Virus genome (UHGV): UHGV-1635749
Reading direction: 5' to 3' (one strand)
Origin: a virus
DNA length: 15,654 nucleotides
Positions 4,703 through 11,967 of this stretch are shown here, piece by piece. Both the position numbers and the translations under genes were made by a program. Position 1 is the stretch's first letter. The number at the start of each line of letters is the position of its first letter. The notes beneath the pieces were generated by a model. It saw nothing but the letters and a program-made list of their open reading frames with translations, did not search any database and was not told the origin of the DNA.

Positions 4703-5138
4703 ATAATTTTGCTTCTGGATAACATCTACAGCGACCATCAGGACAACACTTTCCCTCTCCGGGATGACCACTTTTAGGCGGCTTACTCCACGAAAATGTT
4801 TTCCCATTATTTTTAGCGCATTCTGCACACTCGTCACCATCCTCGCAGGAGCGCCAAATATAACGTTTAATACCCAAGCGAGATTGCTTTATCCTCTCTG
4901 CCTCAGAGTGACGACGGCTATTTTCGGCGAGGTGTTCAGCATAGCGCGCGTTATCCTTCTCAATTTCTTCTTTACTTCGCCGCTTCCCATTTGCTGGCTT
5001 TGATTTTTGGTAAGCAACCCGTTTATTTCGATTGTATGATTTAATAATTTCGTCTTCATTTCTACGCTTTTTAAATTTTAAATATTTAACAAATGCAAAA
5101 ACAATTACGAATAAAATAATAATATATGCAGGTTCCAT
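4701..5138 (-). CDS. Membrane-anchored, basic, Cys-rich hypothetical protein (145 aa) in the AT-rich cassette
   Basis: N-terminal hydrophobic helix AYIIILFVIVFAFVKYL followed by KFKKRR (positive-inside). Lys/Arg/Glu-rich middle. C-terminal CEDGDECAEC...GKTF...HPGEGKCCPDGRCRC putative metal-binding motif. ATG overlaps the upstream stop (TAATG at 5136-5140). Strongly AT-rich codons. Confidence 0.55.
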   Translation of the reverse strand: MEPAYIIILFVIVFAFVKYLKFKKRRNEDEIIKSYNRNKRVAYQKSKPANGKRRSKEEIEKDNARYAEHLAENSRRHSEAERIKQSRLGIKRYIWRSCEDGDECAECAKNNGKTFSWSKPPKSGHPGEGKCCPDGRCRCYPEAKL

Positions 5139-6879: not shown

Positions 6880-7482
6880 TCATCCCCCGAATGCTGATGT
6901 AACGCTTCCGCCCAGCTGGCTCAGCAAAGATTCGTTTGGCGGTGTAGTGGATTTCGTCCCGGAATTTTGCACCGCCGATGTGCTGACGCCATCCTGCATA
7001 TCTGATTTATCAGCAACGCTAACGCTCTGCGTTTGCGACATGATCACTTCACGCAGGGTAAGCGTGCAGTTCAGCACGTTCTCGCTGGTTTTGTCCGTTG
7101 TCACCTCGATGGCTCTCACCAGCATATTGCTGTACACCCGCTTCCCGGTCACCACATCGAACGGCACCCGGGAGGACTGGAGATCCAGCAGTTGCTGATA
7201 GGTCTCTTTCGGGCTCAGTCCGGCGCTGAGGCCGATTGAAGATGTATCAATGAAGTCCAGCAACGAACCGCCCCCAGCGAAGCCGCATTCCATTGTGACT
7301 TCGCTGGGGCGCTTATACGCATGATCGGCGATGAAACCCGAGGCGCTATTCGTTGTTGGCTTCTCCACCGGGTGCTCAGTAATTTCGAGCGCATCAGAAT
7401 GCTTTTCGGAAACGACCACGCTGGGGATCAGCAGGCCAATTCGCCGTGATTGCTGGCGAAAAATCGCTGATAAAATATCCAT
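6880..7482 (-). CDS. Hypothetical tail protein directly after the tape measure gene (P2 gpU / Mu gpN position; 200 aa)
   Basis: ATG at 7482 overlaps the tape measure stop (7482-7484) by 1 nt. Position typical of a tube-initiator or distal tail protein. No motif recognised. Confidence 0.5.
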   Translation of the reverse strand: MDILSAIFRQQSRRIGLLIPSVVVSEKHSDALEITEHPVEKPTTNSASGFIADHAYKRPSEVTMECGFAGGGSLLDFIDTSSIGLSAGLSPKETYQQLLDLQSSRVPFDVVTGKRVYSNMLVRAIEVTTDKTSENVLNCTLTLREVIMSQTQSVSVADKSDMQDGVSTSAVQNSGTKSTTPPNESLLSQLGGSVTSAFGG

Positions 7483-9749
7483 TATCTCGGTCCTGCGGGG
7501 AGTTGCTGGGTTAACTGTGAATTCACACCCTTTTGACGGTCAACAGTCAAACGGGCAGCTTCGCGAGGATCGGAAACGCCGTGGATGTTAATGTTCGTTT
7601 CCTGCTGAATCACCGGGGCGCTGGTGGGCATATTGCTCATTACTTTCGGAATGTAATTGCGCGTTTCCTGCGGCATTAGCCCCATTCCATAACGTTGAAC
7701 GTTCCCGATTCCCCAGTTATATGATGCAAGTGCTTTGCTAAGGTCTCCGCCGTTCTGCCGCAATAGCTGGCTAAGGTACTTAGCGGCTGCCTGAGCTGAC
7801 TTTTCCGGGTCGAACACATCGTTACCACGCAGGCCCATGTCTCGCGCCGTGCCATCCATGAACTGGAACAGCCCCTTTGCACCCGCGCCGGACATGGCGA
7901 ACTGGTTACCACCTGACTCGGTTATCGCCACACTTTTCAATAGACCAGCTGGAAGTTGATAAAGCGACTCAAGTTTATTGAACATTGGCCCCATCCAGTC
8001 GAGCAATACTTTGCCCTGGGCTGTGGCCTGTGGACGTTTGACTGATTGCGCAAACTGGGAGGGGTCACCCGATATATTTGGAGAGATTTCAGCAGCTCCA
8101 GCCGGGGAGAAAAATAAATTACCGATTTTGGCAATCCCGTCTGAGATTTTTTCAAGATAACCATTAGCAGCCTGCTGACGGTTTTTTATTTCATCTCTTT
8201 CATGCGGGGCAATTTCATTACTACGAACATGCTGTTCCGCCCCGGGAATGTCAGGCTGAACATTATCGCCATAAACGACGCCATTGCTTTGCGCCTGACG
8301 AATAATCTTACCTGGGCCACCATGCAGCCAATCCATCCATGCGGGCCATTCTCTTACCTCGCTAACATCTTTTCGCCCAAGGTCGGTTTTGATGCCAACC
8401 GTAGCAAGAGCATCACCAATGTTCCTTTTGGTATAGTCCAAAGATGATTTAGCACTGGCTTTTATGTTTTCACGATCTGAAACCAGGTAACCAGCATACG
8501 CTCCCCATAATTTAAGCCATGGAGGTATCGGAAGACCGGATATTTTTGCGAATGCTCCCAATACTTTTGTTACCCATACCCCAGCGATGAAAGTAGCCAA
8601 AATTTCCAGCGAGTTCTGCCATCCACCAACAGAATCTTTCAGCCCCAGAAGCTTATCGCGCAGCCAGAGAATTGCCTTTTTCGCCTTTTCTATTGCAGGC
8701 TCCCACTTGGACCAGTCAATCAGGCTTTTACCGCCTTCTTTCCACGTCTGATAATCGTCATAGAGTAATCCGATCGCCAGAATCAGCGTGGTGATAATTC
8801 CAATCGGGGATTTCAGGAACGCAGAATTAAGCAGACGCCATGCGACAAGTAGAGCACCGAATATTTTCAGCAGATTTTTACTGCCATCGTCAAGATGCTT
8901 CCACCAGTCAATGACAGAGCCAGCGCCCTGTATGAGCCGCCACGCCATTCGCGTGAAGGCGTTCGCAAGCCAGATCACGCCTTTAATAACTCTGGTCAGC
9001 GTCTCTTCAATCTTCGGGAAGTTGTCGAGGATGCGCCGCCGCAGGCTGTCCAGCGAACCAGCAAGACCACCAGCGAGGTTTGAGCCGATCTTGTCCCGCA
9101 TAATGCCGAACAGCGACGTAAGCCCGCGCATGGACGTCATGAATTTATTGGACTGCACAGCCGCCTTATCAGCGTTGAACCCAGTCTTTTGCAGCATAGA
9201 CTGGTAATCGGCGGTAAAGCCATTCATGCCGCGCCGCATCGCCATCAGCGTGTTTTCATCGATGCCAAGCATCTGCGCGTATTGCTTCGCGCGGTAATAC
9301 GGCATGTTGTTGAGCTTTTGCCCAACGCCAGTAAAGATGGCCGCAGTATCACGCATCTTTCCGCTGGCATCTCGGGTCTGGACACCAAGACGGTTCAGGA
9401 AGCCTTCCGCCCCCGGATTGCTACGCATGAAACCGGCCAGCCCTTCGAGGGAGGACATGGCCGACTCGGCGCTGGCACCGGTTTGCGACGCGGCATAGCC
9501 CAGCGCTTTGATGCCCTGGACGCTGGCCCCCGTCCGTTGGGATGCCCAGTAAATTTTATCCAGACCATTCGCGATCTGGGTGGTAAATCCGACAATGCTC
9601 AGCGCTGCGCCTTCCACCACCGCGCCGACCTTCAGAACGTTTGCGGTAACGCCTTTCAGCACGGCTTCAAACTTATTAGCGCCAGCCTGATCGATATCGA
9701 ATCCCAGCGAAACAAGGAAGTCTTTAATCGTATCTGCGTTACCGCTCAT
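7482..9749 (-). CDS. Tail tape measure protein (755 aa) with a C-terminal lytic transglycosylase (SLT-like) domain
   Basis: Long ORF directly after the chaperone/frameshift pair. Hydrophobic segments at about aa 292-330 and 381-400. Residues about 585-700 contain ITESGGNQ...GAKGLFQFM...AAKYL...ASYNWG, resembling the family-1 lytic transglycosylase E-S / GLMQ / AYNAG motifs. GGAG upstream of the ATG at 9749. Confidence 0.9.
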   Translation of the reverse strand: MSGNADTIKDFLVSLGFDIDQAGANKFEAVLKGVTANVLKVGAVVEGAALSIVGFTTQIANGLDKIYWASQRTGASVQGIKALGYAASQTGASAESAMSSLEGLAGFMRSNPGAEGFLNRLGVQTRDASGKMRDTAAIFTGVGQKLNNMPYYRAKQYAQMLGIDENTLMAMRRGMNGFTADYQSMLQKTGFNADKAAVQSNKFMTSMRGLTSLFGIMRDKIGSNLAGGLAGSLDSLRRRILDNFPKIEETLTRVIKGVIWLANAFTRMAWRLIQGAGSVIDWWKHLDDGSKNLLKIFGALLVAWRLLNSAFLKSPIGIITTLILAIGLLYDDYQTWKEGGKSLIDWSKWEPAIEKAKKAILWLRDKLLGLKDSVGGWQNSLEILATFIAGVWVTKVLGAFAKISGLPIPPWLKLWGAYAGYLVSDRENIKASAKSSLDYTKRNIGDALATVGIKTDLGRKDVSEVREWPAWMDWLHGGPGKIIRQAQSNGVVYGDNVQPDIPGAEQHVRSNEIAPHERDEIKNRQQAANGYLEKISDGIAKIGNLFFSPAGAAEISPNISGDPSQFAQSVKRPQATAQGKVLLDWMGPMFNKLESLYQLPAGLLKSVAITESGGNQFAMSGAGAKGLFQFMDGTARDMGLRGNDVFDPEKSAQAAAKYLSQLLRQNGGDLSKALASYNWGIGNVQRYGMGLMPQETRNYIPKVMSNMPTSAPVIQQETNINIHGVSDPREAARLTVDRQKGVNSQLTQQLPAGPR

Positions 9750-10352
9750 TGGCCGCTCTCCATTTATCTACCCGGGCGTCGTTATCCTCGCGCATGTCGA
9801 GGTAGTCATTGAGAAGCGCGATGCGGCAAAGGTCTACCGCACCGCTGTTAAGGTCTTTCTGGTCAATATGGAAGGCAAGCGCCGGACGAAGAATAAAATC
9901 TTCACCGCCCGGCAGGCTGTTGAAGGTTATTCCGCTGGCGGGGTGGGCGTCTCGCTGGTAGGGAGTCCTTGCAAAAAATTTCCCAGCGAGTCGGCGACCA
10001 CCCGCGCCACCAGTTGCAGCATGGTAAGCAGGTCGATATCGTCAAACGCCATTTCGCCATGCTGGCAGACCGGCACCCAGCCTTTCATGTGCTCGCGTGA
10101 AACAACGGAAAGACAGGGGAACAGGATAGCGTCCACGTCGCCATCACTCAGATCGGACACAGCATTGGCAATCTTTGGCAGGATGGTAGCCATCGCGCCT
10201 TCGGTGTCTTTGCTGCTGATCTTCTCCTGAACGCTCCGGAAGTCCGAAACCATCCCGGCCAGAACCGGCAACAGCTTGCGGGACACCTTCAGCTGTTCGA
10301 AAACGCTGAGCTTTGCGGTGCGATATTTCACGCCTTTAATTTCGAATTCCAT
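9739..10352 (-). CDS. Predicted -1 frameshift fusion product of the tail chaperone (about 205 aa; P2 E+E' / lambda G-T analog)
   Basis: The -1 frame is open from the slippery site (plus 9972-9984) for 79 codons (FFARTPYQRD...DKWRAANER) and stops at TAA 9739-9741, overlapping the tape measure ATG (A-ATG-AGC-GGT-AA). Confidence 0.5.
9927..10352 (-). CDS. Tail assembly chaperone (141 aa; P2 gpE / lambda gpG analog)
   Basis: Small ORF between the tube and tape measure genes, ending 178 bp before the tape measure start. That gap is filled by an open -1 frame (see the next two features). Confidence 0.7.
   Translation of the reverse strand: MEFEIKGVKYRTAKLSVFEQLKVSRKLLPVLAGMVSDFRSVQEKISSKDTEGAMATILPKIANAVSDLSDGDVDAILFPCLSVVSREHMKGWVPVCQHGEMAFDDIDLLTMLQLVARVVADSLGNFLQGLPTSETPTPPAE
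9972..9984 (-). other. Candidate programmed -1 ribosomal frameshift site (tandem slippery heptamers)
   Basis: Minus-strand GGGAAATTTTTTG read in frame as ctG-GGA-AAT-TTT-TTG contains G_GGA_AAT and T_TTT_TTG. Both are in the X_XXY_YYZ register relative to the chaperone frame, about 14 codons before its stop. Confidence 0.5.
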
Positions 10353-10355
10353 GCG

Positions 10356-10796
10356 TTAAAACTCCCCGAGAAGCTGGTCAATCTTGCCGCAGTCGAATAC
10401 CCAGGCGACGGTTCCGCCCTCTTTAGCGTTATTGAAATCAGGCTGTTTCTGGAATGCACACGAACGCGCAGTAGAAATATCACCCGATGCCGTGTTGCGA
10501 ATGACGATCACGTTATTGCCCCAGGTGGCAGAGGACTGGCTTTGCGCGTTATACGCCAGAGACAGCTTCTTGTTCACGGGGGAGGTTTTCAGCAGCGTCA
10601 CCGTAATGGTGCCTGACTTATCGGCGTGCAGGCTGTGCATCACTTCGCCATCGGCACCGATGGTCATGGTGTTCTTGTTGCCGCCCATAGCTACGGTGAT
10701 ACCTTCCTCAGAGTTCGCAGAACCCTGACCCAGATCAATAACACCGGTCGGACCGGTGAGCGACGCGGTTACATCGAGAAAAGAATAAGTTGACAT
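10356..10796 (-). CDS. Tail tube protein (146 aa)
   Basis: Sits between the sheath and chaperone genes, the canonical tube position for contractile tails. AAGGAG upstream of the ATG at 10796. Confidence 0.7.
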   Translation of the reverse strand: MSTYSFLDVTASLTGPTGVIDLGQGSANSEEGITVAMGGNKNTMTIGADGEVMHSLHADKSGTITVTLLKTSPVNKKLSLAYNAQSQSSATWGNNVIVIRNTASGDISTARSCAFQKQPDFNNAKEGGTVAWVFDCGKIDQLLGEF

Positions 10797-10806
10797 TTAT
10801 CGCTCC

Positions 10807-11967
10807 TTAGCGAACCACGTTGATCTGCACATCGGCATAATGAACTGCGCCAGCCAGCTTACAGGCCACCTGAATTAACGGTGCTTTGCGCGCTTCCCGG
10901 TCGGCCTGCGCCTGTTCGGAGAGGGGTTGCGCATACACGTAATAGCCTTTGGTCAGCGTATCGCCGGAATTCAGTTGTCCGATAGGGCCACCATTCCACA
11001 CGCCAGCCGCTACCAGACCGTTCGTGACGGACTGATCCATGGACTGTTCAACGTTGGAAAGCAGGCGGGTCACACCGGCATCAGTCTGCGGAATTTTAGT
11101 GGTGCTGGTGTAAAGCAGGTTATAGAGGTTGGTCTGAACGTAGTTCTGCAACCAGTCGAGCCCGTGGCGCTCGTCGAAGAAGTCACCGTTCGCCATGACA
11201 CCCTGTTGCAGGATCGCCGTGTCGTTGGCGTAGTACACGAACACGTTCGCGTTCTTCGTATCTACCGCAGCCGCCTGACCTAACGTCAGCGTTTCGTAGG
11301 TTACGCCTGGCTCCTGTTTGAACTTCAGGGTAATGGTGGTATTGCTGCCGTTGAAGTTAACAGTGAACGCACGACCGAACGCAGAAGCCGCTGCATAAGG
11401 GCTACTGGTGGAATACTGAATGAAAGTGCGGGAAAACTTGCCAGCCTTTAATTTCGACGCAACATCGGTCATTGAAGTCGTGCTGATAATCCCGGCGTCA
11501 GCAGAGGTCACACCAAAGATACGGCTAAGGCTGGACGCTTCAATAAGTTTGGCGACCTCAATCACGTCATCAGCATCAAGCACATCATCGCCATCAGCAA
11601 CATCATCAGCGACAACCAGCCCATACCAGTTGGTATACTGCAGGCAGGCATTAACAGCTTGCACGATGGTTTCCACGCTTCCACCTTCGGAAGAGGTCAG
11701 CGTCTTCGCCCAGCGGCCAACATAAACCTGCGTCGGCTTCGGTGACTGGCTGAAGAAAACCTGCGCTGCTTTATATTCCGGGCTGTCGACACCGAAGTCT
11801 TCGCCAATGTCCTCAACGGACGCATAAAGGCGAATACGCTCCTGCACCGGAATGACAGTGGAAGAACCGAGGATCAGCAGTGCGCCGAAGTTACGACCAG
11901 TAGCCGCTTTCGGCGAGATGATCACATCAACGTTTACAACGTTGGATACAGGTAAGCCCTGCGTCAT
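10807..11967 (-). CDS. Tail sheath protein (386 aa)
   Basis: Largest ORF immediately upstream of tube-chaperone-tape measure. Size and position fit a contractile sheath. Family membership not verified. Confidence 0.75.

Follow-up and report, generated by a model that had tools for sequence, protein, structure and literature searches.

A conserved in-phase slippery patch and a DUF6889 extension point to a -1 frameshifted tail assembly chaperone in the virus genome UHGV-1635749

A stretch of 15,654 nucleotides (nt) from the virus genome UHGV-1635749, referred to here as the window, carries a phage tail module in which a tail assembly chaperone gene is followed by an overlapping open reading frame (ORF) in the -1 frame. 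This -1 ORF is, on the sequence evidence laid out below, a genuine conserved coding region, and it is very likely that the chaperone frameshift architecture is real and that the fusion protein is made by a ribosomal slip. The original prediction of the chaperone frameshift architecture that is conserved among tailed phages was borne out by the gene order, a -1 overlap without a start of its own, an in-phase slip patch and a conserved DUF6889 extension. Both reading frames of the chaperone sit between the tail tube gene and the tape measure gene, as in the lambda G/GT type, and the tail chaperone frameshift is known to be conserved in long-tailed phages (PMC3091744; PMC5009743). The site is an ordinary conserved tail-chaperone frameshift, and the records of Klebsiella phage Mulock and Burkholderia phage Magia already include homologous frameshift products. 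The zero-frame chaperone scored 114.9 bits against the Pfam family Phage_TAC_15 (PF21822; cut-off 22), with model positions 1-121 of 127 covered.

The slip patch, G GGA AAT TTT TTG, is a 13-mer that lies in phase with the chaperone ORF, and the chaperone codons that contain it, CTG GGA AAT TTT TTG, encode L123, G124, N125, F126 and L127. Two overlapping heptamers of the form X_XXY_YYZ had been claimed in the chaperone frame, and the site had been called unusual for being doubled. The in-phase site was confirmed; however, three heptamers rather than two were found at 9984-9972, designated h1 (G_GGA_AAT), h2 (A_AAT_TTT) and h3 (T_TTT_TTG) in 5' to 3' order, and the tripled site is not unusual but invariant within its own clade. 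Across the 20 genes of the window, in-phase X_XXY_YYZ heptamers occurred at a rate of 0.0034 per codon (17 in 4958 codons), and 3 of these 17 were those of the patch. The pattern XXXYYYZZZZZZ occurred a single time on both strands of the window.

The -1 frame opens 57 nt upstream of the patch, at 10041, and is open for 81, 80 and 79 codons when counted from h1, h2 and h3, respectively; the 79 open codons that had been predicted across the gap hold from h3, and one or two more are gained from the other heptamers. The gap between the chaperone and tape measure genes was measured as 177 nt (9926..9750), not 178, and the -1 stop does not lie exactly over the tape measure ATG (9749-9747), as had been stated, but is a TAA at 9741-9739 inside ATGAGCGGTAA; the end of the extension overlaps this ATG and, with it, the first 11 nt of the tape measure ORF. 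The translation of the -1 frame matched DUF6889 (PF21829; E=1.4e-11, 44.4 bits against a cut-off of 23.9, model positions 3-38 of 40) as well as PHROG 4364 (E=2.6e-17). In a codon alignment of 35 distinct relatives, the diversity at the three codon positions of the unique part of the extension, read in the -1 frame, was 0.25/0.22/0.51, a pattern like that of the chaperone gene (0.26/0.20/0.50). Diversity in the dual-coding overlap followed the -1 periodicity (0.29/0.23/0.39), and its most variable position was position 2 of the zero frame, which indicates that the zero-frame C-terminal tail is the less constrained reading. The +1 frame was closed or not kept in relatives. An AlphaFold2 model of the extension alone contained helices at 27-37, 42-47 and 52-79, with predicted local distance difference test values of 85-95, and these form a confident three-helix domain at 27-79; the linker of ~20 residues before this domain is predicted to be disordered.

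In a DNA-level comparison with eight annotated phages, the identical 13-mer was present in all of them, both in Omnitron, which is 98% identical, and in the other seven (Mulock, SEN34, yong1, YP3 and others), which share 67-73% DNA identity. All eight have an extension of 62-64 codons that ends over the tape measure start. The -1 frame opens just 1-2 codons before the patch in loci L006 and L008, which pins the shift to the patch. Among 29 species-representative bacterial genomes with 54-100% chaperone identity, the exact 13-mer was found in 26 and GGAAATTTTTT was in phase in all; likewise, GGAAATTTTTT was in phase at 37/37 moderately diverged enterobacterial loci. In L106 (CTC GGA...) and L111 (CTT GGA...) h1 alone was lost, and in L105 the change was confined to the last base of the patch (TTA). 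Locus L116, from Enterobacter sp. R1(2018) (NZ_RCAA01000019.1), has a 5-nt insertion, a duplication of GCCCG at alignment columns 161-165, that cuts the -1 ORF to 22 codons beyond the chaperone stop; this locus is probably a decaying prophage or an assembly error. Synonymous diversity over the 63 conserved degenerate codons of the chaperone had a median of 0.50 and was <=0.12 in only 8, namely codon 2, CGG-GTG (117-118), the four patch codons and one codon of the overlap. Values for the four patch codons were 0.00/0.00/0.00/0.06. Synonymous variation thus falls to approximately zero on the patch, indicating that selection at the RNA level sits exactly on it.

A tblastn search with the predicted fusion of 204 amino acids (aa) matched 40 phage records, including phages of Bordetella, Ralstonia, Burkholderia, Acinetobacter and Edwardsiella, at identities down to ~30%. 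In 39 of these records the match came in two pieces, as is expected for a change of frame; only Providencia PSTCR3 departed from this, with one matching piece confined to the chaperone part. Beyond these phage records, 39 distinct IMG/VR loci carry a -1 extension of 55-70 codons together with a slippery motif at the same patch; a first scan of IMG/VR had given only near-identical loci (at least 95%) and added no divergence. Throughout the wider family the loci, relatives at 30-40% identity among them, keep a -1 extension of 55-75 codons whose end falls at the tape measure start or just short of it, and the number of perfect heptamers at the patch ranges from 0 to 3. The sole constant at the patch in this wider set is an in-phase U_UUY tetramer in the A site, and the P-site codon that precedes it is usually able to re-pair (A_AAU, C_CCU, G_GGU or U_UUU).

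Possible stimulators of the slip were sought on both sides of the patch. RNA secondary structure downstream of the site, a search for which had been proposed with the original prediction, was not supported by folding, by RNAalifold or by Rfam: the z-scores for folds of 92 nt and 201 nt around the site were -0.96 and -1.81, the RNAalifold consensus of 36 relatives had an energy of -8.3 kcal/mol with covariation near zero, and the Rfam search returned no match. Two candidate structures were rejected. A long-range helix specific to the window and bracketing the patch pairs in 66% of cells, compared to 65% for shuffles, and a hairpin 58 nt downstream is without covariation and sits on the conserved LPGGED..RP motif. 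Downstream structures are rare for tail chaperone frameshifts (PMC3091744).

Upstream of the patch, the chaperone gene contains a Shine-Dalgarno (SD)-like element, GGGUGGUC, and SD-like sequences located 9-14 nt 5' of a slip site have been reported to stimulate -1 shifts (PMC5009743). The predicted duplex of GGGUGGUC with the 3' tail of 16S ribosomal RNA (rRNA) has an energy of -12.7 kcal/mol and is the second strongest site on the strand in the window; the genuine SDs of the operon score -2 to -11. The sole stronger anti-SD site is a canonical AAGGAGGU at 337, before a gene that runs off the window. This strongest match, AAGGAGGUGU at 337-328 on the minus strand (-15.2 kcal/mol), presumably serves a gene starting near 320, off the left end. 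Among 28 distinct enterobacterial sequences upstream of the patch, 26 have an SD-like site at this offset (-20/-21); its codons CGG-GTG are synonymously frozen (0.06 each), and the element takes other forms in Bordetella (GAGGTCATCA), Ralstonia (GGGAGG) and Magia (GGTGGTGG). Judged from sequence, GGGUGGUC is a candidate upstream stimulator of the slip, a role whose probability is placed somewhat short of even.

A fusion of the same composition could also be produced without any ribosomal slip, if RNA polymerase slipped on the A3T6 run and added one U to some transcripts, from which standard translation would then yield the fusion. The T6 run is strictly conserved in the enterobacterial clade, and proteins of this architecture arise by transcriptional slippage in other systems (PMC5009743); however, productive slippage has been described for runs of ~9 A or T (PMC5009743), and the run here is 6. 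Moreover, distant relatives keep the -1 architecture with T4 only (CCT TTT ATT, AAT TTT ATT) or with GGA AAT ACT TTC, patches that are too short for polymerase slippage and yet are classical motifs for re-pairing of transfer RNA (tRNA), and it is the codon phase of the motif, not merely the homopolymer, that is conserved. Slippage of the polymerase is accordingly regarded as very unlikely. Less probable again is that the extension is an independent small gene with its own start in the gap, next to which the slippery patch would be incidental. Existing annotation speaks for such a gene, as 26 standalone DUF6889 proteins are held in databases, PHROGs lists the extension as a separate family, and the Prokaryotic Genome Annotation Pipeline (PGAP) draws a separate RefSeq coding sequence (CDS) of 27 aa, 'DUF6889 family protein', in a near-identical E. 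coli prophage (L089, NZ_CP073719.1, 979-1062). This 27-aa stub, which corresponds to 9822-9739 on the minus strand of the window and has a non-canonical start codon (ATC in the window), is an artefact that arises because the annotation does not model the frameshift. The -1 frame of the window has no ATG, GTG or TTG until 16 codons before its stop, well within the conserved domain; 25 of 33 distinct relatives have none from the patch up to the conserved LP.GE motif, and the remaining relatives have starts at varying places and without good SDs. In addition, the database entries for the extension (46-75 aa) have ragged N-termini with M in place of L or I, coding periodicity and amino-acid conservation run from the patch onward, and the synonymous freezing of the four patch codons is something that an independent gene would not need. 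That the -1 frame is functionless, open by chance or in decay, and the gap a non-coding spacer, has a probability close to negligible. The truncated extension of L116 would fit such decay, but the Pfam and PHROG matches, the coding periodicity, the persistence of the frame in clades at 30% identity and its regular length and end point all stand against it, and a -1 frame open for at least 79 codons has an empirical P of 0.03 in the window for one sequence, before all relatives are counted.

With a ribosomal -1 shift as the preferred reading, the heptamer on which it occurs was considered, and h2, A_AAU_UUU (9975..9981), is given about an even chance of being the main slip site, with h1 and h3 auxiliary or lineage-specific. 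In E. coli, V_VV.A_AA.R and H_HH.U_UU.Y (where H is U, C or A and Y is U or C) are among the best -1 motifs, and tetramers rank as A_AAG >> U_UUC > U_UUU (PMC4066793). The choice of h2 follows from its membership, shared with C_CCU_UUU, of the efficient H_HH.U_UU.Y class, from the retention of X_XXT_TTT at its position in most clades (A_AAT_TTT in Acinetobacter, C_CCT_TTT at most Burkholderia-clade loci and G_GGT_TTT in part of the Ralstonia clade), and from the curated fusion of Magia, which is the exact product of a slip on C_CCT_TTT at the h2-equivalent position. A lower but still appreciable probability is assigned to a real -1 shift that has its main site elsewhere, at h3 as in P2 or at h1 as in lambda, or that is the additive outcome of all three heptamers. 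The h3-type TTTTTTG is shifted on experimentally in P2 (PMC3091744), the Ralstonia clade retains T_TTT_TTC at the h3 position, and the Bordetella clade keeps only G_GGA_AAT (h1) and a T_TTC tetramer; all 13 nt are frozen in the enterobacterial clade, suggesting that each heptamer matters, and the 11-nt spacing from the SD-like element suits h1 as well as h2. On the other hand, h1 is gone in L106, L111 and the TTA and CTA variants of Acinetobacter while the extension is intact, h3 is absent from the Acinetobacter and Burkholderia clades, and the efficient E. coli class holds A_AAU_UUU, not G_GGA_AAU or U_UUU_UUG. The predicted junctions set h3 apart from the other two heptamers, as a slip on h1 or h2 would give ...SLGNFFART... 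(tryptic peptide VVADSLGNFFAR) and a slip on h3 would give ...SLGNFLART... (tryptic peptide VVADSLGNFLAR); the C-terminal tryptic peptide of the zero-frame chaperone is VVADSLGNFLQGLPTSETPTPPAE.

In the proposed mechanism, most ribosomes would finish the 141-aa chaperone and stop at 9927, and a minority would slip one base back on G GGA AAU UUU UUG. The likeliest event would take place with tRNA-Asn in the P site and tRNA-Phe in the A site, re-pairing from AAU-UUU to AAA-UUU, after which the slipped ribosomes would read 78 more codons in the -1 frame. The resulting fusion would join chaperone residues 1-126 through the disordered linker of ~20 residues to a DUF6889 domain that is small and helical. 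If it works as lambda G/GT and P2 E/E+E' do, the common N-terminal part would coat the tape measure protein and the rare C-terminal domain would recruit the tube subunit, so that the tail would polymerise to the measured length. GGGUGGUC may pair with 16S rRNA and raise the frequency of slipping, and no downstream structure would be involved. The anatomy of the site, the conserved coding character of the -1 ORF, the constraint on the patch at the RNA level and the want of a start of its own follow from the sequences themselves; the heptamer used, the stimulation by the SD-like element, the efficiency of the shift and the roles of the domains in assembly are points that we infer. A further possibility, which is considered rather unlikely, is that the invariant three-heptamer 13-mer and the frozen GGGUGGUC make up a distinct, structure-free cassette in which pairing with rRNA would hold the ribosome over three chances to slip, that the ratio of the two products would thereby be robust across enterobacterial hosts, and that DUF6889 would be a tube-recruiting domain like lambda T.

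It should be noted that several observations weigh against the frameshift reading, in whole or in part. A search for proteomics, ribosome profiling or reporter data on the window or its relatives found none, and none of the 26 extension homologues is an uninterrupted chaperone-DUF6889 ORF, which would have been an independent confirmation. One candidate for a natural fusion, P0145 (Logan contig, 74 aa; chaperone C-terminus, +1, then the -1 extension in one ORF), was rejected, since two 1-nt deletions in homopolymers of an error-prone assembly explain it best. Recruitment of the tube by the DUF6889 domain is an analogy drawn from lambda G/GT (PMC5009743), and the fold of the extension had no significant match in BFVD or PDB; the best match, which was not significant, was an uncharacterised myovirus protein of 56 aa, and a PDB sequence search also returned no match. 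With respect to the slip itself, h1 and h3 fall outside the high-efficiency class of E. coli, and efficiency may be low without a downstream stimulator. The SD-like element is absent in the Acinetobacter relatives and encodes a conserved Arg-Val-Val, and both points make its role as a stimulator less certain.

The tail assembly chaperones G and G-T of lambda are reportedly the subject of Levin, Hendrix & Casjens 1993 and of Xu, Hendrix & Duda 2004, 2013 and 2014. In such pairs, two proteins that share an N-terminus are reportedly made at a fixed ratio, with both required for tail assembly and neither present in the virion. Lambda G/GT is flanked, as here, by the major tail/tube gene and the tape measure gene, and it shifts on G_GGA_AAG (PMC5009743), from which h1 (G_GGA_AAU) differs in the last base alone. 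Dissimilar from lambda, the system described here belongs to a contractile tail, has three overlapping heptamers, likely shifts mainly on A_AAU_UUU and not on X_XXA_AAG, and has a candidate SD-like stimulator upstream. E/E+E' of P2, likewise a myovirus, has a -1 shift in a chaperone gene between the tube and tape measure genes and shifts experimentally on TTTTTTG, without a downstream hairpin (PMC3091744, citing Christie et al. 2002). This heptamer is identical to h3; however, the protein families differ, and TTTTTTG is here one of three heptamers and is missing in the Acinetobacter and Burkholderia relatives. No sequence homology to lambda gpG/gpT or P2 E/E' was found in a Pfam scan at E<=0.01, which returned Phage_TAC_15 and DUF6889 only. 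As there is neither detected homology to the lambda and P2 chaperones nor a PDB sequence or fold match, the architecture is analogous within the broad tail assembly chaperone class, and homology is not demonstrated. In dnaX of E. coli, A_AAA_AAG is combined with a strong 3' stem-loop and yields a shift of ~50%. The dnaX cassette also has an SD-like sequence 9-14 nt 5' of its slip site (PMC5009743), which GGGUGGUC resembles at 11-14 nt upstream, a likeness seen in silico only; the heptamers differ from those of dnaX, and no 3' stem-loop is found here 5-9 nt after the slip site.

GenBank already lists a homologous 'tape measure chaperone frameshift product' for Mulock (QFG06717.1) and for Magia (YP_010668111.1). 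Both are true homologues of the predicted fusion, with 56% and ~37% identity, respectively, and Mulock shares the identical 13-mer with the window; these products are known as GenBank features only, without a reported experiment, and the Mulock genome announcement makes no mention of a frameshift. An exact look-up in a collection of 15 billion proteins returned the Magia fusion and none of three junction versions of the Mulock and window fusions. Literature searches found no paper on DUF6889 or on the frameshift of Mulock. Among the top-listed E. coli matches the name 'DUF6889 family protein' recurs, and several nr entries for the extension bear the wrong name 'lytic transglycosylase', which seems to have spilled over from the neighbouring tape measure gene with its SLT domain. 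Of 5,426 complete E. coli genomes, 119 carry related sequence, and in 37 of these the match spans at least 80% of the query. The lineage of the window lacks a frameshift annotation. A reading of DUF6889 as the frameshift extension of Phage_TAC_15 chaperones would put right how a prophage tail module of wide occurrence is annotated and would, by analogy, assign a role to a Pfam family of unknown function. Furthermore, the family forms a natural mutational series at a single patch, in which zero to three heptamers occur with or without an SD-like element and with no 3' structure, and this series could serve to test how the efficiency of frameshifting in bacteria depends on heptamer identity and on rRNA pairing.

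Table 1. Features of the predicted frameshift site and of the surrounding tail genes in the window, followed by the patches of related clades.
Feature	Position (nt)	Strand	Basis or remark
Slip patch G GGA AAT TTT TTG (GGGAAATTTTTTG, 13-mer)	9984..9972	-	In phase with chaperone ORF
h1 heptamer G_GGA_AAT	9984-9978	-	In phase
h2 (middle) heptamer A_AAT_TTT	9981-9975	-	In phase
h3 heptamer T_TTT_TTG	9978-9972	-	In phase
SD-like element GGGUGGUC	9996..10003	-	11 nt 5' of h1, 14 nt 5' of h2
Predicted fusion CDS, 204 aa, ~22.6 kDa	complement(join(9739..9975,9975..10352))	-	Slip on h2
-1 extension, 81 codons from GGG, stop TAA 9741-9739	9739..9984	-	Translation, coding periodicity; without own start
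Dual-coding overlap: zero-frame tail QGLPTSETPTPPAE and -1 frame linker ARTPYQRDAHPASG	9930..9971	-	Predicted disordered
DUF6889 domain core, inside predicted three-helix domain	9754..9861	-	Pfam PF21829
Tail assembly chaperone ORF, zero frame, 141 aa, stop TAA 9929-9927	9927..10352	-	Pfam Phage_TAC_15 E=4.4e-33; PHROG 1688 'tail assembly chaperone' E=3.4e-57
Tail tube protein, KPP10_Orf10 / DUF3277, directly upstream of chaperone	10356..10796	-	Pfam PF11681 E=1.1e-60
Tail sheath protein, DUF3383	10807..11967	-	Pfam PF11863 E=1.9e-103; PHROG 205 'tail sheath'
Tape measure protein, 755 aa, C-terminal SLT lytic transglycosylase domain	7482..9749	-	Pfam SLT E=1.2e-24; PHROG 2276 'tail length tape measure protein' E=9e-220
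Acinetobacter patch			TTG/TTA/CTA GGA AAT TTT ATT; h2 always, h1 optional
Burkholderia patch			GGC CCT TTT, some GGG/GGA CCT TTT or TCT TTT; C_CCT_TTT after GGC, else T_TTT tetramer only
WC36-2 patch			GGC CCT TTT; G_GGC_CCT and C_CCT_TTT
Ralstonia clade patch			(G_GGT_)TTT_TTC, some T_TTT_TTT; h2 and/or h3 positions
Bordetella patch			GGA AAT ACT TTC; h1 and T_TTC tetramer
Edwardsiella ZHS patch			GGG GAT TTT; T_TTT tetramer only

All long ORFs of the window are carried on the minus strand, and the tape measure gene is followed on its 3' side by Dit-like, Pam3-gp18-like and E217-gp41-like baseplate genes. A second frameshift was considered at the 3' end of the tape measure gene, where A_AAG_GGT (7533-7527, minus strand) lies 17 codons before the stop and the -1 frame enters the Dit-like gene (7482-6880), which would give a fusion of the tape measure and Dit-like proteins; this candidate was rejected as a coincidence. 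Mulock, SEN34 and yong1 lack the A_AAG_GGT seen at 7533, and in Mulock and yong1 stops also interrupt the -1 frame at this place. The region of the window is 98% identical to Citrobacter phage Omnitron (CP115737, L003), a record without annotation. The chaperone is 99-100% identical at genome loci of E. coli, Enterobacter bugandensis, Pantoea stewartii and Shimwellia pseudoproteus, and this identity across the genomes of four host species suggests a broadly transmissible prophage. Elsewhere in the window, an in-phase G_GGA_AAG at 4755 is followed by just 5 open -1 codons and appears incidental. The ORFs at 5138-4701 and 4840-3926 on the minus strand overlap by 140 nt as listed, and the downstream gene probably begins in reality at an ATG further on.

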